Shown here piece by piece: positions 2 through 43,306 of a stretch of 43,306 bases of DNA (position 1 is its first letter; every line of letters starts with the position of its first letter). The stretch spans positions 1 through 43,306 of the forward strand of contig JBBTED010000038.1 of assembly GCA_038042445.1 (NCBI GenBank), in the 5' to 3' direction. This DNA is from Candidatus Firestoneibacteriota bacterium (lineage in GTDB: Bacteria > Oederibacteriota > D2-FULL-39-29 > JBBTED01). The notes below the pieces were generated by a model, which was not told the DNA's origin, made no database searches, and worked only from the letters and a program-made list of their open reading frames with translations. Position numbers and translations under genes: made by a program.

Positions 2-976
2 ACGCAAAATAATAAATATATTCCTGTTTTTCTTGCGCCAATGGCAGGTGTTACTGATATTGCTTTTCGCTCAATTTGCAAAAAAATGGGAGCAAGTTTT
101 GTATTCACTGAGATGGTGAGTGCTGCCGGAGTAATCAGACAAAATAAAAAAACATTAAAATTAATACAAATTACTGAAGAAGAAAGACCTGTTGGAATAC
201 AGATTTTTGGAAATGTTCCTAACATTATGGCAGAAGCTGTATCTATAATAGGTGAAAATGCGGATATAATTGATATAAACTTTGGATGTCCTGCAAAAAA
301 TATTGTACGAAATAATGGAGGAGCATCGCTTTTAAAAGAGCCACAACTTATAGGAGAAATAGTAAAAGCAGTTGTGCAAACAGCTAAAGTTCCTGTAACT
401 GCAAAAATCAGAATTGGATGGGATGATAACGCAATTAATGCAATTGAAATATCAAAAATTATAGAAGATGCAGGTGCAAAAGCAATAACTGTTCATGCAA
501 GAACTTATTCGCAGGGGTTCAGTGGGAAGGCAGACTGGAATGTTATAAAAAATGTAAAGTCTAATGTCAAAATTCCAGTTATAGGTAATGGGGATATTAA
601 AACTCCGGAAGATGCAAAAAGAATATTGGAAGAAACAGGTTGTGATGGTATAATGATAGGAAGAGCAAGTTTAGGTAACCCCTGGATATTTAAAAGAATA
701 ATTGAATATTTAAAAACAGGCGAAATATTACAAGAGCCTACATTAACTGAAATTGCAGAAATGATAATAGAACATTTTAATTACTTTGTAAAAATCAAAG
801 GAGAACTTGTTGCAACAAGAGAAATACGCAAGCATATAGGTTGGTATGTAAAAGGAATACCTGGTGCATCAGAGTTAAGGCAAAAAGTAAATGTATCTAA
901 AACCAAAGAAGAGACAATAGATGTTTTAAATAAATTTTTCTTTCCAAGAAAGTTGGTGTTAAATTATGCCCAATAA
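2..976 (+). CDS. dusB: tRNA-dihydrouridine synthase DusB (5' end outside window)
   Basis: The frame stays open upstream of the ATG at 41 (TQNNKYIPVFLAPMAGVTD), so the true start lies before base 1. Motifs LAPMAG, DINFGCP, GGASLL, VHART, GNGDI and MIGRA. Confidence 0.93.
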   Translation, partial: TQNNKYIPVFLAPMAGVTDIAFRSICKKMGASFVFTEMVSAAGVIRQNKKTLKLIQITEEERPVGIQIFGNVPNIMAEAVSIIGENADIIDINFGCPAKNIVRNNGGASLLKEPQLIGEIVKAVVQTAKVPVTAKIRIGWDDNAINAIEISKIIEDAGAKAITVHARTYSQGFSGKADWNVIKNVKSNVKIPVIGNGDIKTPEDAKRILEETGCDGIMIGRASLGNPWIFKRIIEYLKTGEILQEPTLTEIAEMIIEHFNYFVKIKGELVATREIRKHIGWYVKGIPGASELRQKVNVSKTKEETIDVLNKFFFPRKLVLNYAQ

Positions 977-1727
977 ACATTTTCATTTATCAGTAGAGGA
1001 ATTATTAAAGAAAGTTCAAGACGGTAAACTTGAAATAAAAGATGCTATTTATAAGTTAAAATGTCTGCCTTATGAGGATTTGGGTTTTGCAAAAACTGAT
1101 GGGCACAGAGTTTTAAGACAGGGTTTTCCAGAAGTTATCTTTTGCGAAAATAAGACTACAGAACATATTATTAAAATTATTGGCAGTTTGAGAAAATCAG
1201 GAAATGTTATTCTTGCTACAAGAGTGGAACCCCAAGTTTTTTTAAAGATAAAAAAGAAATATCTAAATGCAAAATACAATAAAGCAGCACGTGCAGTTTC
1301 CATTCAAAAAACAACAATAAAAAAAATCGGTAATATTCTTGTTGTTTCAGCAGGGACAGCAGATATTCCAGTTGCAGAAGAAGCTGCATTTACTGCAGAA
1401 TGTATGGGTGGTAATGTAGAAAGATTATACGATGTTGGTGTTGCAGGAATTCATAGACTACTTGGGGAAAAAGAAAAAATTTTTAAAGCCACAGCAATTA
1501 TAGTAGTAGCTGGTATGGAAGGAGCTCTTGCAAGTGTAGTTGGCGGGCTTGTAAGTGTGCCTGTTATTGCAGTTCCAACAAGTATAGGATATGGCGCAAG
1601 TTTTAAAGGTGTAGCTGCATTGCTTTCTATGCTAAACAGTTGTTCTCCAAATGTATCAGTTGTAAACATAGACAATGGTTTTGGTGCAGGTTTTATAGCT
1701 AGCCTTATAAATAAAAATAAACTATGA
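966..1727 (+). CDS. larB: Nickel pincer cofactor biosynthesis protein LarB (AIR carboxylase-like)
   Basis: Motifs DGHRVLRQGFPEVIF, AGTADIPVAEEA, DVGVAGIHRL, AGMEGAL, PTSIGYG, MLNSC and VVNIDNGFGA. Overlaps larC. Confidence 0.93.
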   Translation: MPNKHFHLSVEELLKKVQDGKLEIKDAIYKLKCLPYEDLGFAKTDGHRVLRQGFPEVIFCENKTTEHIIKIIGSLRKSGNVILATRVEPQVFLKIKKKYLNAKYNKAARAVSIQKTTIKKIGNILVVSAGTADIPVAEEAAFTAECMGGNVERLYDVGVAGIHRLLGEKEKIFKATAIIVVAGMEGALASVVGGLVSVPVIAVPTSIGYGASFKGVAALLSMLNSCSPNVSVVNIDNGFGAGFIASLINKNKL

Positions 1728-6216: not shown

Positions 6217-6354
6217 GCAATACCATATTGTTCCCTTTAGAAAGGACGAAACATGAAAATACATAGCAAAGATGATGATTGCATATATTTTTGAGAATGT
6301 ATTAAAACAAATTAACCCGAAAAAGGAAGAACTTTAATTCTATTTTCTAATTTA

Positions 6355-6554
6355 ATAATGGGGTAATCTTAGGTGGTATTGGTAGCCGCAGGCTTTAGAG
6401 CTTGTGCCAAAAGGTGTCATTCTGAGGCGATAGCCGAAGAATCTCGTTTAAAAGTCTTTTAAAAACGAGATCCTTCACTTCGTTCAGGATGACAAAATGG
6501 AGTTTTGGCACAGGCTCTAAAGCCTGCGGCTACCACCAATAACTGACCCATTAT
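6355..6554. mobile_element. Non-autonomous MITE-like element with nested repeats
   Basis: Termini ATAATGGG/CCCATTAT, flanked by direct repeats CTAATTTA (6347-6354 and 6555-6562). Contains a 32-bp inverted repeat with one mismatch (6381-6412 / 6503-6534) and an inner TGTCAT element (6415-6494). Confidence 0.7.
6415..6494. repeat. TGTCAT-tagged palindromic element (innermost layer of the nested element)
   Basis: TGTCATTCTGAGGCGATAGCCGAAGAATCTC...GAGATCCTTCACTTCGTTCAGGATGACA. Confidence 0.85.
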
Positions 6555-6608
6555 CTAATTTATTAAAATGTGTTGTATATTTAAGGTAAAAAGCGGTAAT
6601 ATTAGGGT

Positions 6609-9395
6609 ATGAATAAAGTAATTCATTATTTCCTATTGATTTTCCTTATTACTTTTTTTGTAAAAATCAATTTATTATTTGCCATAGCAGGTCCTGAAAA
6701 TGTTCTCGTTATAGTTAATGATAGTAGTGCAGATTCAAAAACAATTGGAGACTACTACAAGCAAAAAAGAAATATTCCGGATATAAATGTCCTGCATTAT
6801 ACAGGCAGTACCACTGAAACAGTTAATGAAACAACTTATAATTCGTTAGTAACTTCCATAAGAAACTATATTTCTACTAATAATCTATCTAGTAAAATTG
6901 ATTATATTGTTCTTACAAAAGGAACACCATTAAGAGCCACTATAGGTGGCACTACATATTCTTCTTGTAATTGGCTTGTTGCTATGGATGCAGTCCCTTT
7001 AACGACAGATCATACGGACAATCCTTATAATGGCAGGTCCTGGTGGTATAGCAGTTCTCCATGGGGAACACAAATAGATGATACTTTTTTACACAGCAAA
7101 ACATATAATGGCTACACTAAACTTTATTTAGTTACACGATTGGATGGATATACAGTAGATCAGGTAAAAGTTTTAATTGATAATTCAGTTAATGCAGGTG
7201 GTCTTAAAGGAACATCCGGTAAATTTCTTTTTGATGCTAAAGTGAGTGGAGCAGGTTATATACAAGCAGATAATGCGATGACTAATACAAAAAATTCGAT
7301 GGTATCAAATGGATACAGCACGATTTATGATAATACGAGTACTTTTTTAACAGGGTATTCTAACTTGATGGGTTATGTTAGCTGGGGTAGTAATGCAGGT
7401 GCAGATTTCACATTGGCAAAATATCAAAATTTATCTTTTATGCCTGGTTCTATTGGTGAAACTTATGTTTCATCAGGTGGCAGAACTTTTAATTTACCAA
7501 CAGACTGGCCAAATTATTCAGGTCAGTCACTTATAGCGGATTTAGTAAAAAATGGTATAACAGGTGTATCTGGATATGTTGCAGAACCTTATTTAGATGC
7601 CTGTCTTGATGTAGAAAATTTATTTGCCAGATGGACCAAAGGATATAATTTAGCAGAAAGTTTTTATATGGCAGTTCCATATCTAAATTGGATGACAGTT
7701 ATAATAGGGGACCCTCTTTGTTCAGGTATAGGAACACCTAATATAACAGATGCAGGGGCAATTACAAACTCATCAACTGTTACATTTACCTGGAGCAAAG
7801 GAACAATAATAGATTCTTCTACTATTACCAGTTACTATTTACAGGTTGGCACAACAAAAGGTGGAAATGATAAATTTGATGGAGATGTAGGGAATGTATT
7901 AAGTAAAGTAATATCCGGTTGTGAAGAAGGGAAAATATACTATGCGCGTGTTTGTGCAAAAAACACAAATAGTTTATACAGTCCTTGGTCATACACTGAT
8001 GGAATCAATATAGATTTGACAGATTCGAATAAAGCAAGTGATTTTTCTGCTACACCATTAGTAGGCAGAAAGATTCAATTAAGATGGTTACGTTCTACTT
8101 CAAGTGATGCAAATTCATATAGGATTTATATGTCAACAGGTAATATTGATTATTCAACTCCTGTAGCTACTGTTTCTCATCCAACTGAATTATGGATAGC
8201 AGAGAATTTGCAGGATAACCAGCTATATTATTTTGCAATAAGAACAGTAGATTTAGCAGGTAATGAGGAACAAAATACATTTGTAATTAATGCAGTAGCA
8301 GTTGAAAATTTTGACAAAGCGAAAGTAGAAATAAAAGTTCCAAAAAATGAAGAAAAAGTTGGTGGAAAAATATTAACAGTAGTTGCAGATATCATATATG
8401 GAAATATTTTAGATATCAAAGCAGTTAAATTTGAATACAAAAGAGCTACTGAGAGCGTATGGGCGTTATTACCTGTAACGAATGTAAATGATTCAAATCC
8501 TGACACAAAATATCCATATTATATACATTGGGATATTAGTGGTCTGCAAGCATCATCATATAATTTACGTGCAGTAGGAACTGATAAGAACAATATACAG
8601 GATAATTCAGTGGGACATATAACATTTTCAATAGACACTACAGATTTGGATATTGAAGAAGATGGAAATGGTCAGAAAAAAGAAAGAATAGATAACAGGA
8701 AGAACAATTTAATACAATTTGGAGAATTTGGGTTTGACCAATTAACACAAATAATTATACCTTTAGGTTTATTGAGTGTAGAATCAACGAGAATTATTCT
8801 TACAGTAAATCCAAAAGATGCACCTGCTTATGATGGAACTCTGGGATTTGCCGGAGAAATAAGAAAGATTGAATTGGAGAACAATCAAAAAGATTTTGCA
8901 AGCGAAATTACGCTTACTATTCCATACAAAGATAATAATAATGATGGAGTAATAGATGGAACAAGGGTGAAAGAAAAAGAATTAGCTATGTATAGTTATA
9001 ATGATATTTTAAAGAAGTGGGAAAAATTAGTGAGTAATGTAATTGATAAAGAGAATAATGCAGTTACTTCTAAAACAACACATTTTTCGTACTTTGGATT
9101 ATTTGCACCTGTAATGACAGATTTAGTTGAGGCACATGTGTATCCTAATCCATTTAAGCCATCTTTAGGACACACTAATATATATTTTACGAAATTAACA
9201 GATAGGACACGGCTTAGAATTTTCAATGTAGCAGGCGAGTTAATATATGATGTAGAGAAAAGCACACCAAATGGAGAATTTGAATGGAATGCTAAAAATT
9301 CAGGCGGAGAAAATATTGCAAGTGGTGTATATATTTATATGATAACGAATGATAAAGGGCATATTAAAAAAGGCAAATTAGCAATAATACGATAA
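6609..9395 (+). CDS. Secreted TIGR03790-domain protein with FN3/Ig-like repeats and a T9SS/FlgD-Ig-like C-terminal sorting domain
   Basis: Signal peptide. TIGR03790-type motifs YYxxKRNIP, LVTRLDG, GYVAEPYL, GYNLAESFY and IIGDPL. FN3-like YYFAIRTVDLAGNE, a DNNNDG calcium-type motif, and C-terminal VYPNPF...IFNVAGELI...ASGVYIY. Confidence 0.75.
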   Translation: MNKVIHYFLLIFLITFFVKINLLFAIAGPENVLVIVNDSSADSKTIGDYYKQKRNIPDINVLHYTGSTTETVNETTYNSLVTSIRNYISTNNLSSKIDYIVLTKGTPLRATIGGTTYSSCNWLVAMDAVPLTTDHTDNPYNGRSWWYSSSPWGTQIDDTFLHSKTYNGYTKLYLVTRLDGYTVDQVKVLIDNSVNAGGLKGTSGKFLFDAKVSGAGYIQADNAMTNTKNSMVSNGYSTIYDNTSTFLTGYSNLMGYVSWGSNAGADFTLAKYQNLSFMPGSIGETYVSSGGRTFNLPTDWPNYSGQSLIADLVKNGITGVSGYVAEPYLDACLDVENLFARWTKGYNLAESFYMAVPYLNWMTVIIGDPLCSGIGTPNITDAGAITNSSTVTFTWSKGTIIDSSTITSYYLQVGTTKGGNDKFDGDVGNVLSKVISGCEEGKIYYARVCAKNTNSLYSPWSYTDGINIDLTDSNKASDFSATPLVGRKIQLRWLRSTSSDANSYRIYMSTGNIDYSTPVATVSHPTELWIAENLQDNQLYYFAIRTVDLAGNEEQNTFVINAVAVENFDKAKVEIKVPKNEEKVGGKILTVVADIIYGNILDIKAVKFEYKRATESVWALLPVTNVNDSNPDTKYPYYIHWDISGLQASSYNLRAVGTDKNNIQDNSVGHITFSIDTTDLDIEEDGNGQKKERIDNRKNNLIQFGEFGFDQLTQIIIPLGLLSVESTRIILTVNPKDAPAYDGTLGFAGEIRKIELENNQKDFASEITLTIPYKDNNNDGVIDGTRVKEKELAMYSYNDILKKWEKLVSNVIDKENNAVTSKTTHFSYFGLFAPVMTDLVEAHVYPNPFKPSLGHTNIYFTKLTDRTRLRIFNVAGELIYDVEKSTPNGEFEWNAKNSGGENIASGVYIYMITNDKGHIKKGKLAIIR

Positions 9396-9420
9396 AAAAG
9401 CTAAAAATTTAAAACAAAGA

Positions 9421-10500
9421 ATGAAAAACCATAATTTTAAAATTAAAACTTTACTAAGGAGTCAGTTATTGATGGTAGTCGCAGGCTTTAGCCTGCGAAA
9501 AATTATGCAACTTAAAGATTGCTACTATAAATCTTCGCTTTTAACTGACACATTACTTACTTTGCTTGTTTTATTCATTTTTGCATCTAATATTTTCGCA
9601 GTAGAAATTGATACAAAAGCAGGAACAACAGGTGCAGCATTTTTAAAAATGGGAGTTGGAGCAAGGCCAGTAGGGTTAGGAGAGAGTTTTGTTGCAGTAG
9701 CAGATGATGTAAATGCTTTGTATTGGAATCCAGCAGGAATATCTTTGCTTAAACAAAGCGAAGTGACTTTTATGCATAATGTATGGTTAGAAAAAATGAG
9801 TTATGAGTATTTAGGATTTGTATATCCTCTTGAAAGAAGTGCAATTGGAATAAGTGCAGGATATTTGAATATAGGTGAATTAGAAGGCAGAGATATGAAC
9901 GATAATATTACAAGTAATTTTACAGCGTATGATATGTTTGTTGGGGTAACATATAGTCAGAGAATAGAAATTGAAAATGAAGACGAAGGTAAACTATTAA
10001 TTGGAATTACAGTAAAAAATATACAGGAAAAAATAGAAGGGACAAATGCAATTGGATTTGGAGCAGATGCAGGGTGTTTATTTTTAGTAGATGAAAATTG
10101 GACAATAGGAGCAATGCTTCAGAATTTTGGGATAGGTTTAAAATTTATTGATGAAAGAAATAATCTGCCGATGAATATTAAAATAGGAACAGCATATAAA
10201 TTTTTGGAGGATAAAGATTTGTTGTTAAGTGTGGATTTAAACAAACCAATAGATAATAAATTTAGATTAAATGCTGGAGCGGAATATAAGTTGTATGATA
10301 AAAGCTTAGCTAACGGAATTATTGTATTTCGTGGAGGATATAAGTATCAATTAGGCGGCAATGACGATATTGGAGGATTAAGCGATTTATCAGCAGGTAT
10401 TGGATTTGTATATGAAGAAGCAATACAACTTGATTATGCATTTGTTCCTTATGGTCTTTTAGATTTTACCCACCGTATTTCTCTAACAATCCGGTTTTAA
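9421..10500 (+). CDS. PorV/PorQ (UPF0164) family outer-membrane beta-barrel
   Basis: GAAFLKMGVGARPVGLGESFVAVADDVNALYWNPAG, and DYAFVPYGLLDFTHRISLTIRF with a terminal Phe. Confidence 0.85.
   Translation: MKNHNFKIKTLLRSQLLMVVAGFSLRKIMQLKDCYYKSSLLTDTLLTLLVLFIFASNIFAVEIDTKAGTTGAAFLKMGVGARPVGLGESFVAVADDVNALYWNPAGISLLKQSEVTFMHNVWLEKMSYEYLGFVYPLERSAIGISAGYLNIGELEGRDMNDNITSNFTAYDMFVGVTYSQRIEIENEDEGKLLIGITVKNIQEKIEGTNAIGFGADAGCLFLVDENWTIGAMLQNFGIGLKFIDERNNLPMNIKIGTAYKFLEDKDLLLSVDLNKPIDNKFRLNAGAEYKLYDKSLANGIIVFRGGYKYQLGGNDDIGGLSDLSAGIGFVYEEAIQLDYAFVPYGLLDFTHRISLTIRF
9455..9555. mobile_element. Degenerate MITE/REP element inserted in frame in the PorV-like signal peptide
   Basis: Ends TAAGGAGTCAGTTA / TAACTGACACATTA form an inverted repeat with 2 mismatches. 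Internal GGTAGTCGCAGGCTTTAGCCTGCG. It matches the reverse complement of 6518-6553. Confidence 0.75.
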
Positions 10501-10572: not shown

Positions 10573-12087
10573 ATGAAAAAGACAAAACCTAATATTTTGC
10601 TTATAACCAGTGACCAGCAGCATTGGAATACATTAGGATATTTCAATAAAGAAATCAAAACACCTAATTTAGATAATTTGGCAAAACAAGGAACAGTATT
10701 TAACCGTGCTTATTGTCCGAATCCAACTTGTACACCAACAAGAGCTTCTATTATTACAGGTAAATATCCAAGCCAGCATGGGGCGTGGACATTAGGGACA
10801 AAACTTTCTGAGACCGAACATACTGTTGGCGAGGATTTTTCTAAAGTAAATTACAGAACTGCTTTGATTGGTAAAGCCCATTTTCAGCCTATAACAAGCA
10901 CAAAAGAATTTCCTTCTATTGAATCATACCCTATTATGCAAGATTTAAAATTCTGGAGAAAATTCAATGGTCCATTTTATGGTTTTGAAAGGGTAGAGCT
11001 TGCGCGAAATCATACAGATGAGGGACATATTGGACAGCATTATGCTATTTGGATGGAAGAAAAAGGGTGTCTAAATTGGAGGGATTATTTTCGTCCCCCA
11101 GGAGGAAATAATAATAATAAACAAAAACATAAATGGCTTATTCCTGAGAAATATCATTATAATACGTGGATTGCAGAGCGGACAAATGCATTATTAGAAA
11201 AATACCATAAGAATGATGAAAACTTTTTTTTATGGGCAAGTTTTTTTGACCCGCATCCACCATATTTAGTGCCTGAACCATGGGATACAATGTATGACCC
11301 AAAAAAAATAACAGTGCCATCTGCTATACAGGGAGAACATAAAAATAATCCGCCACATTTTAAATTAGTTCAGCAGAAAAATCCTGATTTTTCCGCATGG
11401 AAAGAAACTGGCTACTATATGCATGGTTTTCATTCGCATTTATACGATAAACCAGATCTTGCCAAAAATATTGCTATATATTATGCAATGGTTAGTATGA
11501 TGGATAAATATATAGGAGAGATTTTGAATAAATTAGATAAACTTGGATTAGCAGAAAATACAGTAGTTGTATTTACAACTGACCATGGCCATTTCTTTGG
11601 ACAACATGGTCTTACTGCAAAAGGTCCTTTTCTTTATGAAGATTTAATAAAAATTCCATTTATTGTTAGATATCCGGGTAGAGGTTCTGCTAAAAAAGAA
11701 TCTTCAGCATTACAGTCTTTAGTTGACCTTGCTCCAACATTTTTAAGCATATCTGGAATTAATATTCCAAGAAGTATGACAGGTTTAGACCAAAAAGATG
11801 TGTGGTCTGGAAAAAAAGATAAAGTGCGTGAACATATAATAGTGGAACATCATCATGAACCAACAACTATACATTTGAAAACTTATGTAAGTGATAGATA
11901 TAAAATTACAGTTTATTACAACCGCAGTTATGGCGAATTATTTGATTTAAAGAAAGACCCACAGGAAATAAACAATTTATGGAATAAAAAAGAATTTGCC
12001 AAGTTAAAAGCAGATTTAATTATGAAATTGTTGTTTGCAGAAATGGGAAAAGAGCCTTTATGGATGCCAAGAATTAATGGTGCATAA
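10573..12087 (+). CDS. Cys-type formylglycine-dependent sulfatase-like hydrolase
   Basis: Motifs PNILLITSDQQ, TPNLDNLA, CTPTRAS (CxPxR), GKAHF, DPHPP, TDHG and ELFDLKKDPQEINNL. Confidence 0.9.
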   Translation: MKKTKPNILLITSDQQHWNTLGYFNKEIKTPNLDNLAKQGTVFNRAYCPNPTCTPTRASIITGKYPSQHGAWTLGTKLSETEHTVGEDFSKVNYRTALIGKAHFQPITSTKEFPSIESYPIMQDLKFWRKFNGPFYGFERVELARNHTDEGHIGQHYAIWMEEKGCLNWRDYFRPPGGNNNNKQKHKWLIPEKYHYNTWIAERTNALLEKYHKNDENFFLWASFFDPHPPYLVPEPWDTMYDPKKITVPSAIQGEHKNNPPHFKLVQQKNPDFSAWKETGYYMHGFHSHLYDKPDLAKNIAIYYAMVSMMDKYIGEILNKLDKLGLAENTVVVFTTDHGHFFGQHGLTAKGPFLYEDLIKIPFIVRYPGRGSAKKESSALQSLVDLAPTFLSISGINIPRSMTGLDQKDVWSGKKDKVREHIIVEHHHEPTTIHLKTYVSDRYKITVYYNRSYGELFDLKKDPQEINNLWNKKEFAKLKADLIMKLLFAEMGKEPLWMPRINGA

Positions 12088-18118: not shown

Positions 18119-19921
18119 ATGAATATGATAATGATGATAAGTTTAAGAAATCTTTTCAGGCAAAAAAGACGGAATATACTTTTAGGTATTGCAATTGCAG
18201 TAGGTATAATGATACTTGTGATAGCCAATTCATTTTCAAGAGGAATATCTGATATTATATTCAATAAGATTGCAGCTTATGTTGCAGGACATGTGCAGAT
18301 ATCATTTAATGAAAAGGGACAGATGTATAGGACTATTTTTCGTGATAAGGACAGAATATTACCTATTGTGCAAAAAAATGTAGAAGGCTTGAGGTCATTA
18401 GATGAAGCAATAGGAGTATTTAGCCGGGCAATAGGAAATGGCAAAGCTGATAATGTGGTAATTGTGGGGATTGACCTTGAACAAAAAGTTGATGAAAAAC
18501 TTCAGAAAGAATACGAAGAGTCTTTTAAAATGATTGAAGGAGATTTTAATAATCTAAAAAAGAAGGATATAGAAAATCCAGTAATTATATCTGAAGAGAA
18601 AGCAAAATATCTTAATGTCCGACTTAATGATTCTATACGTGTGCGGTTTACGAATATGAATGGTCAGAATCAAGCGACAAAGCTAAGTGTTATAGGTATT
18701 ATGAAAAATGATAATATATTTATGAACGGAGTATTATTTTTGGATGTTCGGAATGTAAAAAAACTTATGGGTTTCAGACCGTATGAAACTTCAAGCTTAA
18801 ATCTTGTAATCTGGGATGCGAAAAAAAATGCAGTGGCAGTTGCAGACAAATTGCATAGTTTGTTAAAGCCGGGTTTGGCTGTTATTTATGCAGATGTTAA
18901 ATATAAAAATAAATTTGCTAATGCAACAGTGCTTGGTTATAAATCCGATAATGAATCAATAAAAACATTAAAAGACCAGATAAAAATTAAAATCCCCCTT
19001 AGTTTCACTTTAATAAAGGGGGCTGTTATGAAAGAAGAGGATTTTGGCACAAAAAGTGTTTTTATAAGTGAAACTCTGGCAAAAAAACTTGGGGTTAAAT
19101 CAGGCGATATATTTGAGATAGCATATAAAAATAAATTTGAAGGAAAAGGGACAACAGTTAAATATACATTAAAATCAATCATTGAGTTTAACAATAAAAA
19201 TCTGGCAGATAAAAATATTATATTTCTTAATGAAGAAAAATTCTATGATACATATTATGATAATTTGCCGGAAGATTACAAAAAAATTAAGGATGTTGTG
19301 TTACCTGAGGAAAACAGTGGTTTGTATCCAATTCTTGCAACTGAGTGGATATTGCTTGATAGAAGTAGTACTACTGATGAGTTACAGAAAAAGATGAAAG
19401 ATATGAGTAAGAAAAAATGGAAAGGAACTGTTGTGGATGTCCGGTCAATGTATGAAAGCGCAAGTGATGTGTTAAAACTTGAAAGCGCGCTTAATCTTAT
19501 TACTTTTAATGCGGTGATGATACTGTTTTTTATAATTCTTATAGGAGTAATAAATACACTTAGAATGACAATACGCGAGCGCACCAGAGAAATCGGGACG
19601 GTGCGGGCAATAGGTATGCAGAAAAACGATGTGCGAAACAGCTTTATATACGAGGCATTTTTTCTTGCTCTTTTTGCATCAATTGCAGGCATTATAATTG
19701 CGTTTATACTGATGCATATTCTTTCAGCGTTTACGATAAATATGCCAGATAATCCATTATCAATACTTTTAGTAAATGGACATTTATATTTTATGCCCTC
19801 ATTTTTAAGCATTATTTTAAATACATTGTTGATACTTGTTATAGTTGTTGTGACTGCATATTTCCCTGCCCGGAGGGCTGCAAATATGTCACCCACAACA
19901 GCATTAAGGCATTACGAATAA
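18119..19921 (+). CDS. FtsX/LolCE-like ABC permease with an enlarged periplasmic domain
   Basis: SLRNLFRQKRRN, ERTREIGTVRAIGM and PARRAANMSPTTALR. Confidence 0.88.
   Translation: MNMIMMISLRNLFRQKRRNILLGIAIAVGIMILVIANSFSRGISDIIFNKIAAYVAGHVQISFNEKGQMYRTIFRDKDRILPIVQKNVEGLRSLDEAIGVFSRAIGNGKADNVVIVGIDLEQKVDEKLQKEYEESFKMIEGDFNNLKKKDIENPVIISEEKAKYLNVRLNDSIRVRFTNMNGQNQATKLSVIGIMKNDNIFMNGVLFLDVRNVKKLMGFRPYETSSLNLVIWDAKKNAVAVADKLHSLLKPGLAVIYADVKYKNKFANATVLGYKSDNESIKTLKDQIKIKIPLSFTLIKGAVMKEEDFGTKSVFISETLAKKLGVKSGDIFEIAYKNKFEGKGTTVKYTLKSIIEFNNKNLADKNIIFLNEEKFYDTYYDNLPEDYKKIKDVVLPEENSGLYPILATEWILLDRSSTTDELQKKMKDMSKKKWKGTVVDVRSMYESASDVLKLESALNLITFNAVMILFFIILIGVINTLRMTIRERTREIGTVRAIGMQKNDVRNSFIYEAFFLALFASIAGIIIAFILMHILSAFTINMPDNPLSILLVNGHLYFMPSFLSIILNTLLILVIVVVTAYFPARRAANMSPTTALRHYE
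18989..19023. repeat. Degenerate CCCCCT/AGGGGG element inside the permease coding sequence
   Basis: AATCCCCCTTAGTTTCACTTTAATAAAGGGGG resembles the reverse complement of the intergenic arm TAAAGGGGGACTAAGGGGGAATT (29820-29842). Confidence 0.6.
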
Positions 19922-28082: not shown

Positions 28083-29792
28083 ATGGATATATTAAATTTA
28101 CTCAAGAGGAAAAATTTAAAAGAAATCATCTTAAAAACTAAAAAAATACCGGAAGAAAAACTTGCAGTTTTTGATTTTCCGGAAAATATCCTACCTGAAA
28201 AATTATTAAAAGAAGATATTGTAACAGAAGAAGAATTAGCAAAAGCACTTGCCCAGCAATACGAATATAAATATGTGGATATTTCAAAAACACTTATTGA
28301 TTTGCAATTTATTGCAGGATTTTCCTTGGAACTAATTAATAAATACGAATTTGTGCCGTACAAAATAGAAGAGGGTAAACTTTTAATTATTATTTCGGAT
28401 CCTGGCAATATAGAAAAAATAGACAGATTAAAAGTATTAATTGATTTTAAAATTGAAATAGAAATAGCAGGCAAAAGTTCAATAAGAAAAATTCTTGATA
28501 TAATTAATTGTATGCCTGCAGAAGTTGAAAAAATTACAGAAAATTTTGAAATAGAAATATCTGAAAATGAAATCGAAGATGTTAGTTTGGAAAAAGTTAG
28601 TGTAGATGAGACTCAGCCAATCATAAAATTTGTGAATTCTTTTATTCACAATGCAATACGAAGAAAAGCAAGTGATATACATATAGTTTTAGATGACAAA
28701 GAACTAACTGTAAAATATCGTGTAGATGGTGTTTTGCAGAAAGCTATGGATAAGATAGACAAGAAATTTCATGCAAGTATTATATCAAGAATAAAAGTTA
28801 TGTCAGAATTAAATATTGCGGAAAAAAGAATACCTCAGGATGGACGGTTTAAATTGAAATTTCAGGGTAGGAATATTGATTTTAGAGTATCAATACTTCC
28901 TACTATGTATGGAGAAGCAGCGGTTATAAGGATACTTGATAAAAGTGCAATAAGTTTAGAATTAAATAAACTTGGTTTTGAAAAGGAAACTCTCGAAAAG
29001 TTTGATAGGCTAATAAGAGAACCATATGGTATGGTTTTAGTTACAGGGCCAACAGGTTCAGGTAAAACAACAACACTTTATGGTGTTATAAATACTATAA
29101 ATACTCATGAAGACAAGATAATAACTATAGAAGATCCTATAGAATATCTTTTGCCTGATGTTGTTCAAGTTCCTGTAAATGAAAAAAAAGGAGTAACATT
29201 TGCAAAAGGATTAAGGTCAATTTTAAGACATGATCCAGATAAAATAATGGTTGGAGAAATACGTGATCCGGAAACTGCGCAAATTGCAGTTCAATCTGCT
29301 TTAACAGGGCATTTGGTGTTTTCTACAATACATGCAAATAATGTAATAGATGTTATAGGAAGGTTAATAAATATGGGGGTTGAACCATACGAATTTATAG
29401 TGTCTTTAAATTGTATTTTGGCTCAGCGTCTTATAAGAGTTATTTGCCCTGATTGTAAAAAACAAGTCAAATATTCAAAAGAGTATATAGAATATTCTGG
29501 GTTAGAATATGCAAAATATAAAGATACAGTATTTTTTGAGACTAAAGGTTGCAAAAATTGCAATAACACAGGTTATCATGGAAGAACTGGAATATTTGAA
29601 TTGCTTTTACTTTCAGATAGAATAAAAGAAATGATTTTGAATAAAACATCATTTATTGAAATTAGAAGAATAGCAAAAAATGAAGGAATGAAAGAGTTGA
29701 GAGCCGTAGGTATAGAAAAAGCTATTAAAGGAATAACAACATTAAAAGAAGTCAACAGAGTTACATTTATAGAACAAGAAGAAAAAGGTTAA
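28083..29792 (+). CDS. GspE/PilB assembly ATPase
   Basis: ASDIH, EKRIPQDGR, GPTGSGKTTTLY, EDPIEY, LRHDPD, GEIRD, TGHLVFSTIHAN, and CPDC...CKNC. The start at 28083 is preferred over 28056. Confidence 0.94.
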   Translation: MDILNLLKRKNLKEIILKTKKIPEEKLAVFDFPENILPEKLLKEDIVTEEELAKALAQQYEYKYVDISKTLIDLQFIAGFSLELINKYEFVPYKIEEGKLLIIISDPGNIEKIDRLKVLIDFKIEIEIAGKSSIRKILDIINCMPAEVEKITENFEIEISENEIEDVSLEKVSVDETQPIIKFVNSFIHNAIRRKASDIHIVLDDKELTVKYRVDGVLQKAMDKIDKKFHASIISRIKVMSELNIAEKRIPQDGRFKLKFQGRNIDFRVSILPTMYGEAAVIRILDKSAISLELNKLGFEKETLEKFDRLIREPYGMVLVTGPTGSGKTTTLYGVINTINTHEDKIITIEDPIEYLLPDVVQVPVNEKKGVTFAKGLRSILRHDPDKIMVGEIRDPETAQIAVQSALTGHLVFSTIHANNVIDVIGRLINMGVEPYEFIVSLNCILAQRLIRVICPDCKKQVKYSKEYIEYSGLEYAKYKDTVFFETKGCKNCNNTGYHGRTGIFELLLLSDRIKEMILNKTSFIEIRRIAKNEGMKELRAVGIEKAIKGITTLKEVNRVTFIEQEEKG

Positions 29793-29798
29793 ATTAAA

Positions 29799-29842
29799 AA
29801 TCTCCCCTACCCCTCTTAATAAAGGGGGACTAAGGGGGAATT
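29799..29842. repeat. CCCCCT/AGGGGG palindromic element
   Basis: AATCTCCCCTACCCCTCTTAATAAAGGGGGACTAAGGGGGAATT. The last 23 bp are identical to 33380-33402. Confidence 0.8.
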
Positions 29843-30705: not shown

Positions 30706-30709
30706 ATTT

Positions 30710-30736
30710 TGTCATGCTGAATTTATTTCAGCATCT
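30710..30736. repeat. TGTCAT-tagged half element
   Basis: TGTC-ATGCTGAA-TTTAT-TTCAGCAT-CT hairpin. Confidence 0.7.
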
Positions 30737-30747
30737 CTTTTAGAGCT

Positions 30748-32283: not shown

Positions 32284-32319
32284 ATGACCAAAGGGAATGT
32301 TGTAATAATATTGCAAGTC

Positions 32320-32370
32320 GTAGGGGCGAATTTACTCGCCCAATAAATGGACAGGTAAACCTGTCCCTAC
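32320..32370. repeat. GTAG-tagged REP doublet (REPIN-like), copy 1
   Basis: GTAGGGGCGAATTTACTCGCCCAATAAATGGACAGGTAAACCTGTCCCTAC, with 3 differences from 33419-33469. Confidence 0.9.
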
Positions 32371-32398
32371 TAAAAATTAGGGATACAAAGGGGGAGAT

Positions 32399-33364
32399 AT
32401 GGCTGTAGAACTCGTAAAAGAAAAATGGACAGGCAAAATAAATGAAGTAACAATTGGGGCCACAAAAGAGCAAGGTGGAACTAGAACATCTGTTGTTACA
32501 ATTGGTGGGGAAACAGCGATGTCATTTATGCATTTTGAAGGTGAAATGCCTCGTAAACCTGTTATATCAATAGAAGTTTTAGATATGGTGCCGGATGATT
32601 GGGCTAAGGTTTTAACAAAACCGTATGAAGGTGTTTTAGATAAACCCGGGCAATGGGCAAAAAAATGTGTAGAGGAATTTAAAGCAGACATAATTTTTCT
32701 AAGGCTGCAAAGTATACATCCGGATTTTGGAAATACTACTGCAGATAAAGCAGTAGCTGCTGTTAAAGATGTTATTTCTTCAGTTGGGGTTCCAGTTATA
32801 ATTTATGGTTCTGGCAATGCGGATAAAGATAACGATATATTACCCAAGTGTTCCAATGCAGTCCATGGAGAAAATTGTTTATTTGGTAAGGCATCACAGG
32901 ATAATTACAGAACATTAGCTGCTACTTGTCTTGCAGATGGGCATACTATACTTGCAGAAGCTCCAATAGATGTAAATATTCAAAAGCAAGTAAATATATT
33001 AGTAACTGAAATGGGATTTCCTTCTACTAAGATTATAATGGATCCAACTACAGGTGCATTAGGATATGGTTTGGAATATACTTATTCAGTTATGGAAAGA
33101 ATCAGGCTTGCTGCATTGTCTGGAGATAAAATGCTTTCAATGCCATTTTTGTGTTTAATTGGACAGGAAGCATGGAAATCAAAAGAAGCAAAAGCTCTGC
33201 AATTAGATCAACCTGTATGGGGTGATGAAAATAAAAGAGGACCTGCATGGGAAATAGTAACAGGAACAGCATTATTATTAGCAGGTGCTGATATACTTGT
33301 AGCCAGACATCCAGAATCTGTATTTGCACTAAAAAACGCAATCGATAAATTTATGAAGAAATAA
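32399..33364 (+). CDS. acsD: Corrinoid iron-sulfur protein small subunit (ACDS delta / CdhD)
   Basis: TIGATKEQGGTR, APIDVNIQKQVNIL, MDPTTGALGYGLEYTYSVMERIRLAALSGD, EAWKSKEA and AGADILVARHP. Confidence 0.93.
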   Translation: MAVELVKEKWTGKINEVTIGATKEQGGTRTSVVTIGGETAMSFMHFEGEMPRKPVISIEVLDMVPDDWAKVLTKPYEGVLDKPGQWAKKCVEEFKADIIFLRLQSIHPDFGNTTADKAVAAVKDVISSVGVPVIIYGSGNADKDNDILPKCSNAVHGENCLFGKASQDNYRTLAATCLADGHTILAEAPIDVNIQKQVNILVTEMGFPSTKIIMDPTTGALGYGLEYTYSVMERIRLAALSGDKMLSMPFLCLIGQEAWKSKEAKALQLDQPVWGDENKRGPAWEIVTGTALLLAGADILVARHPESVFALKNAIDKFMKK

Positions 33365-33369
33365 AATAA

Positions 33370-33402
33370 CCTCATTTATTAAAGGGGGACTAAGGGGGAA
33401 TT
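33370..33402. repeat. CCCCCT/AGGGGG element (right part)
   Basis: CCTCATTTATTAAAGGGGGACTAAGGGGGAATT. Confidence 0.75.
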
Positions 33403-33418
33403 TGTAGTACTTGTAGTC

Positions 33419-33469
33419 GTAGGGGCGAGTTTACTCGCCCAATAAATGGGCAGGTAAACCTGCCCCTAC
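33419..33469. repeat. GTAG-tagged REP doublet (REPIN-like), copy 2
   Basis: GTAGGGGCGAGTTTACTCGCCCAATAAATGGGCAGGTAAACCTGCCCCTAC, with two perfect hairpins. Confidence 0.9.
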
Positions 33470-33494
33470 TAAAAATTAAGGTGAGGGGGAAAAT

Positions 33495-38408: not shown

Positions 38409-38446
38409 AATTTCCCCCTTTGAAAAAGGGGGATTAAGGAGGATTT
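38409..38446. repeat. CCCCCT/AGGGGG element containing the tpiA Shine-Dalgarno site
   Basis: AATTTCCCCCTTTGAAAAAGGGGGATTAAGGAGGATTT. Confidence 0.75.
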
Positions 38447-40463: not shown

Positions 40464-42077
40464 ATGCCTAAATTAATACTGATAATAATAAGTTTATTTA
40501 TTTTTACAGGATGCACAAGAAACAAAACATCTGAAATCATAAATGTTTCTGATACTTCTCCTGCTTATGGTGGTAATCTTATTGATTCATCTATAGGAGA
40601 TGCCAGTGTTTTAAATCCTGTTCTTTCAACTGATTCAGCATCAAGTGATATAATTGGTTGGGTTTTTAATGGGCTTGTTAAATATGATAAGGATATAAAA
40701 TTAATTGGAGATTTAGCAGAAAAATGGGAAGTAAGCAAAAATGGACTGACTATTACTTTTTATTTAAGAAAAAATGTGAAATGGCATGATGGAATTGAAT
40801 TTACAGCAGAAGATGTCCAGTTTACTTATGATAAATTAGTTGCTCCTACTACAAAAACTCCGTATAGCAGTGATTTTATGTTGGTTCAAAAAGCCCAAGT
40901 TGTAGATAAATATACCTTTAGAGTTACTTATAAAAAGCCGTTTGCACCAGCTCTTGAAAGCTGGGGTATGGGTATAATTCCAAAGCATTTACTTTGGGAT
41001 AAAGATATAAATACTGCATCGTTTAACAGGCAACCTATAGGAACAGGTCCATATAAATTTAAAGAGTGGAAAACTGCTGAAAAAATAGTTTTGGAATACA
41101 ATCCGGATTATTTTGAAGGTAGGCCATATATAGACAGATACATCTATAGAATAATTCCAGATCAGTCAGTGCAGTTACTTGAATTAAAATCCGGTGGCGT
41201 AGATATGATGGGATTAACTCCTGATATGTTTAAAAAACAGGCAAGCACTCAGGAATTCAACGAAAAATTTAATAAGTATAGATACCCGGCATTTCAATAT
41301 ACATATATGGGATTTAATCTTTTAAATCCTATTTTTAAAGATAAAAAGATAAGGCAGGCTATAGCTTATGCTATAAATAAAAAAGAGATAATAGATGGTG
41401 TGATGTTAGGATTTGGTAAAGAGGCAACAGGTCCTTTTCCACATAGTTCATGGGCATATAATCCTGAAGTTAAAAGCTCATCTTATGATCCTGATATGGC
41501 AAAAAAAATATTGGCAGAGTGTGGTTGGAAAGACAATAATAAAGACGGTATTTTGGAAAAACAAAACAAACAATTTGAATTTACACTTGTTACAAATCAG
41601 GGTAATAAGCAAAGAGAACTTGTTGCAACTATAATTCAGGAGCATCTCAAAAAAATCGGAATAAAAGTAAATATACGTATTGTTGCATGGAATGCTTTTC
41701 TTGCCGAGTATGTGGATAAAAAAAAGTTTGATGCTGTAATTTTAGGTTGGTCGCTTAGTCGCGACCCGGATTTATATAGTATGTGGCATTCAAGTATGAC
41801 AGGAGAGAAGCAGTATAATTTTGTTTCCTATAAAAGTCCACTTGTAGATAAATTAATAATAGAAGCAAGAGAAACTTTTGATATGGAGAAAAGAAAAATT
41901 TTATATCATAAGATTCATGCAATACTTGCAGATGACCAACCTTATGTTTTTCTATATGTTCCGGAAAGCTTAGTAGCAATCAACAAAAAAATTTACGGCG
42001 TTTCTGTTGCTCCTATTGGAATATCCCATAACTTTATCAAATGGTACATTCCCAAACAACTCCAGAGATATAAATAA
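40464..42077 (+). CDS. Peptide ABC transporter substrate-binding lipoprotein (OppA/AppA, family 5)
   Basis: Lipobox FTG|C after MPKLILIIISLFI. DLAEKWEVS..LRKNVKWHDG..FTAEDV, PIGTGPYKF and KIRQAIAYAIN. A GTG start at 40449 is possible. Confidence 0.9.
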   Translation: MPKLILIIISLFIFTGCTRNKTSEIINVSDTSPAYGGNLIDSSIGDASVLNPVLSTDSASSDIIGWVFNGLVKYDKDIKLIGDLAEKWEVSKNGLTITFYLRKNVKWHDGIEFTAEDVQFTYDKLVAPTTKTPYSSDFMLVQKAQVVDKYTFRVTYKKPFAPALESWGMGIIPKHLLWDKDINTASFNRQPIGTGPYKFKEWKTAEKIVLEYNPDYFEGRPYIDRYIYRIIPDQSVQLLELKSGGVDMMGLTPDMFKKQASTQEFNEKFNKYRYPAFQYTYMGFNLLNPIFKDKKIRQAIAYAINKKEIIDGVMLGFGKEATGPFPHSSWAYNPEVKSSSYDPDMAKKILAECGWKDNNKDGILEKQNKQFEFTLVTNQGNKQRELVATIIQEHLKKIGIKVNIRIVAWNAFLAEYVDKKKFDAVILGWSLSRDPDLYSMWHSSMTGEKQYNFVSYKSPLVDKLIIEARETFDMEKRKILYHKIHAILADDQPYVFLYVPESLVAINKKIYGVSVAPIGISHNFIKWYIPKQLQRYK

Positions 42078-42127
42078 AATTCCCCCTGCCCCCCCTTTAT
42101 TAAAGGGGGGCAGGGGGAATTTTATTT
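42072..42127. terminator. CCCCCT/AGGGGG palindrome between convergent genes, probable bidirectional terminator
   Basis: AAATAAAATTCCCCCTGCCCCCCCTTTA-T-TAAAGGGGGGCAGGGGGAATTTTATTT. A near-perfect inverted repeat with one extra C and T-rich tails on both strands; spans both stop codons. Confidence 0.7.
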
Positions 42128-43306
42128 TTTGTCGTCTTCTACTTTGTATTCGGCATCTACTACGTTTTCATCTTTTTTCGGTTCTTCTGTGCCAGCTTGT
42201 GGATTGCCATTTGAATTTGGTTCTTGCTGTGGTTGTCCCTGTTGGCCTTGTTGTCCTTTTGTGCTTTGTGCATAAACCATTTCACCGAGTTTCATAGAAA
42301 CTTTGCTTAAGCTTTCTGAAGCAGTTTTTATTTTGTCTGCATCATCGCTTTTCATAGCTGTTTTTAAGTCAGTGATGGCATCTGTTATGCTCTTGCGTGT
42401 TGCTTCATCAAGTTTGCTACCGTGTTCTGAAAGCGCTTTTTCTGTAGAATAAATTAAAGTATCTGCTTGATTTACTACTTCAGCTTTTTCCTTTTTCTTT
42501 TTGTCATCCTCAGAAAATTGTTCAGCTTGTTTTACCATCTTATCAATATCTTCTTTTGAAAGTTTTGTTGGAGCAGTAATTTTCATAGACTGTTCTTTTC
42601 CTGTGCCAAGGTCTTTTGCAGATACATGCAAAATTCCATTTGCGTCAATATCAAATGTGACTTCTATTTGTGGAAATCCTCTTGGAGCAGGTGGTATACC
42701 TACAAGCTGGAATCTGCCAAGACTTGTATTATCAGGTGCCATTTGTCTTTCACCCTGGAGTATATGAATTTCAACACTTGGCTGGCTATCTGCAGCAGTT
42801 GAAAATATTTGGCTTTTCTTTGTAGGTATAGTTGTGTTTCTTTCAATTAATTTTGTAAATACGTTTCCTAAAGTTTCAATTCCAAGTGAAAGTGGAGTTA
42901 CATCAAGTAATAAAACATCTTTTATGTCACCTGTTAAAACAGCTGCTTGTATTCCAGCACCCATTGCAACACATTCCATTGGGTCTACGCCATGCTCAAC
43001 TTTTTTACCAACTAAATTTTCAACAAATTCCTGAACAGCTGGCATTCTTGTGGGTCCGCCAACCATAATTATTTTGTCTATATTTTTCGGCTCTAATTTT
43101 GCATCGGATAAAGCGTTATTTACAGGGCCCCTGCATCTTTCAACTATAGAATGCACAAGGGTTTCTAATTTTGCTCTTGTAAATTTCATTACTAAATGTT
43201 TTGGTCCACTTGCGTCTCCGGAAATAAAAGGAAGATTTATATCTGTGTCAAGTGTAGTTGATAATTCAATTTTTGCTTTTTCTGCGGCTTCTCTTAATCT
43301 TTGAAT
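42122..43306 (-). CDS. dnaK: Molecular chaperone DnaK, C-terminal part (5' end outside window)
   Basis: The frame is open to the window end ([16 protein letters not shown]). [45 protein letters not shown] and VVDAEY. Confidence 0.97.

Follow-up and report, generated by a model that had tools for sequence, protein, structure and literature searches.

A palindromic element in a PorV/PorQ-family gene

The window analyzed here is the whole stretch of 43,306 nt of contig JBBTED010000038.1, from a Candidatus Firestoneibacteriota bacterium, and all within-genome statements below cover this window. It is a chromosomal stretch of ordinary kind, with 32% G+C and genes for housekeeping, type II/IV secretion-pilus functions and glycolysis. 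Within it, the gene at 9421-10500 codes for an outer-membrane beta-barrel protein of the PorV/PorQ family, and the region coding for its predicted signal peptide is interrupted by a small palindromic element containing a pair of repetitive extragenic palindromic (REP) units. A sibling of this element lies in an intergenic region at 6355-6554. The main features are as follows (P0002 is the closest homologue of the gene product):

9421-10500, + strand: PorV/PorQ-family outer-membrane beta-barrel gene, 359 codons from the ancestral ATG
9421-9453, + strand: part upstream of the insert, with the ancestral start codon and the gene's first 11 codons; MKNHN as in P0002
9454-9556, + strand: the insert, a palindromic element whose 103 bp are defined by homology with the termini of the 6355-6554 sibling
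9553-9600, + strand: native hydrophobic core and c-region of the predicted signal peptide; predicted cleavage after codon 60 (I-F-A, then V-E)
6355-6554: sibling element, intergenic, 200 bp; same outer arms, REP pair with an extra palindrome in the spacer (6416-6498)

The gene product matched the NCBIfam model NF033709 (PorV/PorQ family) with 191.1 bits (cutoff 90) over profile positions 1-326 of 326, and Pfam PF19572 (PorV) with 42.1 bits. The equivalog models remained under their cutoffs (PorQ 112.9/220, PorV 83.1/250, PorV2 78.3/325). Since the family model was passed and the equivalog cutoffs were not reached, the safe name on these profile matches is PorV/PorQ family, not PorV. A protein search with the product gave 1147 homologues, the nearest named relative coming from a Candidatus Firestonebacteria metagenome-assembled genome (MAG; 61% identity). 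The public protein record of the gene, P0001, has 331 aa and is called from 9505, an ATG derived from the element.

The 33-residue segment is an insertion

P0002 (79% identical, 325 aa, N-terminus MKNHNLKFKILFLFLFFYISTPEITAAEFDTK) shares its first five residues, MKNHN, with the reading from 9421, whose residues 1-62 are MKNHNFKIKTLLRSQLLMVVAGFSLRKIMQLKDCYYKSSLLTDTLLTLLVLFIFASNIFAVE. It then passes directly into the hydrophobic core, with the same I-x-A pattern at the aligned cleavage position, and the 33-residue segment is missing.

The N-termini of the window protein and 119 homologues were compared by counting, on a MAFFT alignment, the distance from the initial Met to the conserved AGTTG motif. 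This distance is 66 residues in the window protein; its median over the 119 homologues is 30, with 113/119 at 45 or less and the longest at 63. When the 33 inserted residues were compared with the 119 homologues by BLASTP, no N-terminal match was obtained (0/119); the only two matches at E<=10 fell at residues 280 and 138, which are unrelated positions.

A preliminary description of this DNA had placed an in-frame mobile element in the signal-peptide region. Orthologues carrying the same 33 residues were looked for, and none was found in P0002 or at the N-termini of the 119 homologues. At the level of sequence comparison, P0002, the 119 homologues and the Met-to-AGTTG distance together confirmed the segment as an element-derived insertion in the predicted signal-peptide coding region of this PorV/PorQ-family gene. 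The same three comparisons led us to reject the alternative that the 33 residues are ancestral and were lost elsewhere. An assembly join does not explain the segment either, because both flanks of the insert are parts of one gene.

Extent and frame of the insert

Besides the 103 bp defined by homology, two other extents had been put forward in the preliminary description: 99 bp (9457-9555), with TA at both bounds, and 111 bp (9454-9564), with an 8-bp duplication. Both hold as far as the frame is concerned. Either boundary adds a number of bases divisible by three, deletion of the 99 bp restores a short ordinary leader, and the 111-bp model likewise gives one. Of the six frames of the insert, the one in use is the sole open frame, with 33 stop-free codons; the other five contain stops. 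Among 20000 shuffled 99-mers, 7.7% were stop-free. The observation that the insert has diverged from its sibling and yet contains no stop was borne out, with 37 of 43 aligned columns identical.

Anatomy of the element

Positions 9455-9491 and 6517-6553 form an inverted repeat of 37 nt, 89% complementary. The 37 identical columns were obtained by local alignment of 9440-9575 with the reverse complement of 6330-6580, the remainder consisting of 4 mismatches and one 2-nt gap. With up to 3 mismatches allowed, an 18-nt core occurs three times in the window (6381-6398 and 9474-9491 on the plus strand, 6517-6534 on the minus strand), against 0.02 expected from shuffles; the decayed inverted unit at 9506-9525 (see below) escapes this search and comes in addition. 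A 21-nt outer arm occurs twice (6533-6553 minus, 9455-9475 plus), with 0.00 expected. The right terminus of the insert, 9545-9556, agrees with the sibling terminus. Among the matches listed from other genomes (loci L001-L120, see below), the outer arms of about 20 nt are common only to the insert, the sibling and, on one side, L031. The parts of the insert and the repeat around its sibling are:

9474-9497, + strand: REP unit 1, core GGTAGTCGCAGGCTTTAGCCTGCG; GTAG tag, 7-8 bp GC-rich stem, TTTA loop
9498-9505, + strand: spacer separating the two REP units, 8 nt, placed by alignment with REP pairs elsewhere
9506-9525, + strand: REP unit 2, inverted, partly decayed; collinear with the second units of L008, L108, L054 and others
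9526-9556, + strand: right outer arm; terminal 12-15 nt agree with the right terminus of the sibling
6347-6354 (left) and 6555-6562 (right): 8-bp direct repeat CTAATTTA around the sibling, 8/8 identical

Unit 1 folds as an 8-bp stem with a TTTA loop. The GTAG tags were found as GGTAG before the stem at 9474-9478 and as CTAC after unit 2 at 9522-9525. The stem of unit 2 has one mismatch and one G-T pair, 2 nt are absent before its CTAC tag, and fold prediction for this region gave a 4-bp hairpin. In the predicted fold an outer stem pairs 9461-9468 with 9542-9549. As single-stranded DNA, the insert (9446-9564) folds with -15.1 kcal/mol (z -3.21; 1/200 shuffles as good) and the sibling (6343-6566) with -63.2 kcal/mol (z -13.3; 0/200).

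Positions 9455-9555 had previously been described as a decayed copy of layers 1 and 2 of the 6355 element. The homology stands, as seen in the 37/43 columns, the shared arms and the termini; the middle, 9498-9541, gave no alignment to the 6355 element and consists of the REP spacer and a second hairpin. Positions 9474-9528 align column for column with REP pairs of other genomes, and by this collinearity random decay of the middle was rejected in favor of a second REP unit. Since the middle is made of these REP parts and is collinear elsewhere, the insert is, judged by alignment, a fairly complete representative of a separate sub-type and not merely a decayed copy of the 6355 element.

At the spacing of the sibling, direct repeats of 8/8 occur at 3 of 43090 window positions. 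Around the insert in the gene the direct repeat is 5/8, for which P(>=5/8) = 0.07.

The inner palindrome of the sibling (6416-6498), which starts with GTCATTCTGAGG, has a relative at 30706-30741, and look-alikes of it adjoin the REP in L056, L064 and L118, from other phyla. These occurrences suggest that the GTCATTCTGAGG palindrome is a second widely shared hairpin module and that the spacers have a mosaic build, like that of bacterial interspersed mosaic elements (BIMEs).

The REP hairpin in other genomes

A species-representative genome collection of 596 Gb was scanned with the 18-mer, allowing one degenerate position. At least 120 loci (L001-L120) were obtained, whereas uniform-composition arithmetic gives about 35 chance matches. 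The results that follow refer to the matches listed. The six bases that close the hairpin are also present in 110/128 instances and at 105/120 loci. The loci carry, as labeled in the records, the names of Nitrospirota, Desulfobacterota and other 'delta' groups, Omnitrophota, Aerophobetes, Planctomycetota, Caldimicrobium, Patescibacteria, Acidobacteria, Cloacimonadota, Ignavibacteria, Firestonebacteria and others. The 24-nt GTAG-tagged hairpin is nearly unchanged under more than 12 phylum labels, at a locus G+C of 31-73%, and several MAGs contain many loci (for example, 12 loci are labeled Caldimicrobium).

An inverted partner was found within 110 nt in 45/128 instances. The partner stem is often unlike that of the first unit, yet self-complementary. 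In the covariation count, which took all 45 partner rows including about 8 that are not REPs, 31 cells had both sides changed; shuffles gave 11.2 +/- 3.5, and 0/500 of them reached 31. Pairing held for 77.7% of cells and fell to 22-43% when the partner was slid. Two stem pairs alternate G-C, A-U and C-G among the 45 partners, and the GTAG tag (columns 1-4 of alignment A1) is invariant or at least 90% conserved. By the fold of unit 1 and the partner covariation, the REP stem-loop is kept as a structure.

The motif is mostly extragenic: it lies in 56 open frames that reach 100 codons or more, 12 of which have a Pfam match. In 8 of these 12 it is upstream of the domain at the 5' edge, in one it is in a C-terminal tail and in one (L013) internal; the other two are bare 18-mer chance matches. 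Two of the Pfam-matched frames, L014 and L013, were inspected by eye. At L013, in a MAG labeled Nitrospira japonica (2-1144, minus strand), the REP and adjoining heptamer repeats are in frame between two 4Fe-4S domains. Proteins related to that of L013 differ at this site:

P0121 (the L013 record's own protein), P0122 (85% identity) and P0123 (~55-57%): related repeat-derived residues, in varying numbers
P0124: heptamer-like remnant only
P0128, P0132, P0136 and P0140: no such residues

From this protein comparison, members of the REP family do become part of coding sequence, at permissive linkers, and this in more than one lineage.

Short tandem heptamers (CAGTGGC-like, AGTGAAT, GTGAAAG, GTAGGGA) often adjoin the REP just upstream of the motif, for example at L015, L029, L120, L017, L048, L043 and L013. 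They resemble the heptamer short tandemly repeated repetitive (STRR) sequences of cyanobacteria.

The window gave no Rfam match at gathering thresholds, and 20 loci with clean REP pairs gave only sub-threshold look-alikes of microRNA precursors and one unrelated tRNA. A tRNA/tmRNA scan of the window was negative. As a text string, the hairpin was not found in the papers searched, where 12-mers matched unrelated biosensor work only. It is absent from the text and four supplements of PMC3733652, but may already have a family number in Figure 1 of that article, which holds the REP consensus sequences.

Comparison with known systems

GTAG-tagged REPs, as described by Di Nocera, De Gregorio and Rocco 2013 (PMC3733652), have a terminal GTAG tag, a GC-rich stem of 6-9 bp and a short loop, and their dimers consist of two inverted units with the tags outside and partners with different stems (heterodimers). 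The REP pair of the window matches these published head-to-head heterodimers, and is also in line with the concept of REPINs (REP doublets forming hairpins) given in PMC3116915 (Bertels and Rainey 2011) and PMC3337134: two inverted REPs and a spacer, about 100 bp in all, forming one long hairpin, non-autonomous and moved by REP-associated tyrosine transposases (RAYTs). Tag, stem, loop, inverted heterodimer, mostly intergenic location and the occurrence of some intragenic copies, often NH2-terminal and coding for 20-30 residues, are common to the window family and the GTAG-tagged REPs (PMC3733652). In contrast to these, the dimer of the window is enclosed by additional inverted arms on its outside, and direct repeats of 8 bp flank one of the copies. 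REPINs are matched by 9474-9497, the 8-nt spacer and 9506-9525, which make up two inverted REPs; on the other hand, REPIN-RAYT systems are described as vertically inherited in lineages, whereas the REP of the window occurs under many phylum labels.

The RAYT domain (Pfam Y1_Tnp) was found in none of the 41 open reading frames (ORFs) of the window. Around the motif at the 120 loci listed, over distances of 300-600 nt, it was found in 0 of 296 open frames, a search confined to these surroundings. No transposase of either kind (a RAYT, or one that would move a MITE, a miniature transposable element with inverted repeats) was found in the window or beside the 120 listed loci. To our knowledge, REPIN/RAYT transposition, which is of the IS200/IS605 single-strand type, is not expected to produce a target-site duplication. 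The sibling has a perfect 8-bp direct repeat and the copy in the gene one of 5/8. As for the features of MITEs, both copies (103 and 200 bp) have terminal inverted repeats and no ORF, the duplication is clear once and weak once, and two copies were seen. The 8-bp repeat of the sibling looks like a target-site duplication and would seem a better fit to a MITE than to a RAYT-moved REPIN.

Rickettsia palindromic elements (RPEs), described by Ogata et al. 2000, are reportedly about 100 bp long, inserted in frame in protein genes and tolerated. The window element is alike in being a palindromic repeat of about 100 bp, in frame and tolerated, a likeness that includes insertion at the NH2 termini of expressed proteins; it is unlike in sequence family and host, and RPEs are numerous in genes, as opposed to one intragenic copy in the window. 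Proteins with RPE-1 elements at their NH2 termini are expressed, and intragenic REPs of several species occur for more than half as dimers or groups, encode 20-30 residues and lie in sizeable share at NH2 termini, according to PMC3733652. In one published case, too, a small mobile repeat adds residues to a predicted N-terminal signal peptide. There the signal sequence, in a small hypothetical protein, is supplied by the repeat; in the window gene the native core and cleavage site persist and only the n-region is longer, in a host that belongs to a conserved family and has an empty-site orthologue. Intragenic REPs, RPEs and a repeat in a predicted signal peptide are thus already in print, and the window case is the same kind of event. 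What it adds is an orthologue that allows a clean comparison, a host from a conserved family and a site strictly in the n-region.

Predicted leader and choice of start codon

Type I (Sec) signal peptides have a positive n-region and a hydrophobic core of 7-15 residues, and signal peptidase sites carry small residues at -1 and -3. The cleavage site was assigned by this -3/-1 rule, and the leader was judged by inspection and hydropathy only. The Kyte-Doolittle maximum over 9 residues, 3.31, falls on residues 45-53, the native core. Read from 9421, the n-region has 44 residues and includes a hydrophobic patch of 10 residues for which the REP stem codes (Kyte-Doolittle 2.37, versus 3.31 for the core). 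Its net charge is +6 from 9421, +2 from 9472 and 0 from 9505.

The insert begins at +34, 33 nt past the ancestral ATG, so the initiation region of 9421 is as it was before. Candidate starts were compared by the cost of opening positions -18 to +12 and by pairing to a generic anti-Shine-Dalgarno (anti-SD) sequence, with 33 window genes for reference:

9421, + strand: start; opening 3.7 kcal/mol, SD-like pairing -1.1 (none)
9472-9474, + strand: element-derived ATG, codon 18; opening 16.4 kcal/mol, SD-like pairing -7.7; lies against the REP hairpin
9505-9507, + strand: element-derived ATG, codon 29; opening 14.7 kcal/mol, pairing +0.1 (none); start of the database gene call
9456-9461, + strand: AAGGAG, SD-like, in the left terminus of the element, 10 nt before the 9472 ATG; the sibling has TAATGGG

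About half of the 33 window genes have no clear SD sequence, and the lack of one at 9421 is therefore not disqualifying. A stop-free stretch over 9457-9504 was found in 30% of shuffles. If only an internal start were relevant, the register with 9421 (1/3) and the openness of this stretch would together amount to a coincidence of about 0.1.

Interpretation of the insertion

We consider it probable that translation still starts at 9421 and runs through the element, giving a 60-residue leader and an unchanged mature protein, the insertion being near-neutral. A small non-autonomous element, an inverted pair of GTAG-tagged REPs in outer arms of about 20 nt, would have inserted in the n-region of the predicted Sec signal peptide. 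Because the insertion spares the ancestral initiation region, ribosomes would likely still start there and translate through the element. The leader would then consist of the old n-region, 33 element residues, the native core and the I-F-A site, and signal peptidase would cut off all residues added by the element, leaving the mature barrel unchanged and the insertion as near-neutral baggage. Initiation at 9421 is favored because its region is intact and the most accessible, and because an internal-only start requires the coincidence given above. The integrity of the gene, with NF033709 matched over its whole length, supports this explanation, as do the charge of +6 in the n-region from 9421 and a native core stronger than the element-encoded patch; intragenic GTAG REPs, many of them NH2-terminal, together with the expressed RPE-1 proteins, provide a precedent (PMC3733652). 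The insertion, its origin from the element, its frame, the intact downstream part of the leader and the intact gene are established by sequence comparison; which ATG is used, continued export and neutrality rather than regulation are what we infer. The preliminary description had offered an extended n-region or a restart at an element ATG, both of which are possible, and we lean to the extended n-region.

Several points weigh against initiation at 9421, and most of them speak for relocation of the start, in which the protein is made from the element ATG at 9505 or 9472 and the old first 12 codons with the left part of the element become 5' leader RNA. The start at 9421 has no SD sequence, though many genes of the genome use one, and AAGGAG, at its distance of 10 nt from 9472, pairs in the middle of the range of the 33 window genes. 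The public record is called from 9505; with this start the leader has 32 residues and the motif lies 38 residues from Met, as is typical of the family, whereas the distance from 9421 exceeds those of all 119 homologues. Most REPs in the 5' ends of ORFs of several species probably are not coding, and many 5'-terminal intragenic REPs in fact lie upstream of the true start, as stated in PMC3733652. At L014, in a Firestonebacteria MAG, the same REP lies in an open frame upstream of a lipoprotein gene whose own SD sequence and ATG are downstream of the REP. Yet the 9421 start has not been disabled, both internal ATGs are in or beside the REP hairpin and costly to open, and 9505 has no SD-like pairing and a net-neutral n-region; with the coincidence of register and openness, start relocation is somewhat unlikely. 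A further point against the 9421 reading concerns the leader itself, where two acidic residues and an additional hydrophobic patch come ahead of the true core; these element-encoded residues could impair targeting. Together with a leader longer than in all 119 homologues, they would also suit a gene with crippled export on its way to a pseudogene. We regard this as extremely unlikely for a frame that is intact over 359 codons, matches its family at full length and is 79% identical to P0002, and whose element copy, itself diverged from both the sibling and the consensus of the family, is still without a stop.

The element might instead have been kept since its hairpin and SD-like motif modulate translation or allow the leader to exist in two isoforms. 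Compared with the sibling, two substitutions yield an AAGGAG that is workably spaced from an in-frame ATG, a stable local hairpin lies between the candidate starts, and REPs have been proposed as post-transcriptional control elements (PMC3733652). Against this, the case rests on a single instance, the closest homologue P0002 has no element, and the mRNA (9396-9620, 225 nt) is not unusually structured (z -0.65; 46/200 shuffles fold at least as well). A scan of 9000-9900 showed neither promoter nor terminator signals above background: promoter-like sites numbered 7 (expected, 4.3 +/- 1.7), and the insert had no terminator-like site. Such regulatory exaptation is very unlikely. A broader proposal would see in the insert one GTAG-REP family that spreads horizontally or serves a common host function, that has repeatedly been taken into permissive coding sites (the signal-peptide n-region here, the inter-domain linker of the Nitrospirota 4Fe-4S protein) and that here would supply SD, ATG and hairpin for a second, regulated start; taken as a whole, this is quite unlikely.

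Other features of the window

The gene upstream of the insertion site is:

6609-9395, + strand: protein of 928 aa carrying TIGR03790 as N-terminal domain and, at the C-terminus, a type-IX sorting domain; stops 25 nt short of the 9421 ATG

Another GTAG-tagged inverted hairpin pair, present as 67-nt copies of 94% identity at 32316-32382 and 33415-33481, flanks a CdhD-like gene (32399-33364); with this second pair, the genome therefore holds at least two REP families. Palindromes rich in C5/G5 occupy intergenic spacers at 18989-19027, 29791-29842, 33365-33403, 38413-38446 and 42067-42133. Several of them directly precede start codons, and the G-rich arm doubles as an SD-like sequence. An ORF of 216 codons at 39745-40395 matches a sulfatase profile at positions 1-121 of 301 only, and may be a truncated paralogue of the sulfatase that is encoded in full at 10573-12087.

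Significance

For annotation, the case means that repeat insertions near 5' ends can shift the called starts, so that coding insertions go unrecognized; P0001 is an example. The locus is a natural experiment on the tolerance of signal peptides, with 33 foreign residues, including a second hydrophobic patch, placed between an intact start and an intact core, and with an empty-site orthologue (79% identical) at hand for comparison. The occurrence of one REP hairpin nearly unchanged across many phyla, with compensatory variants in its stem, may merit more attention than the insertion itself.

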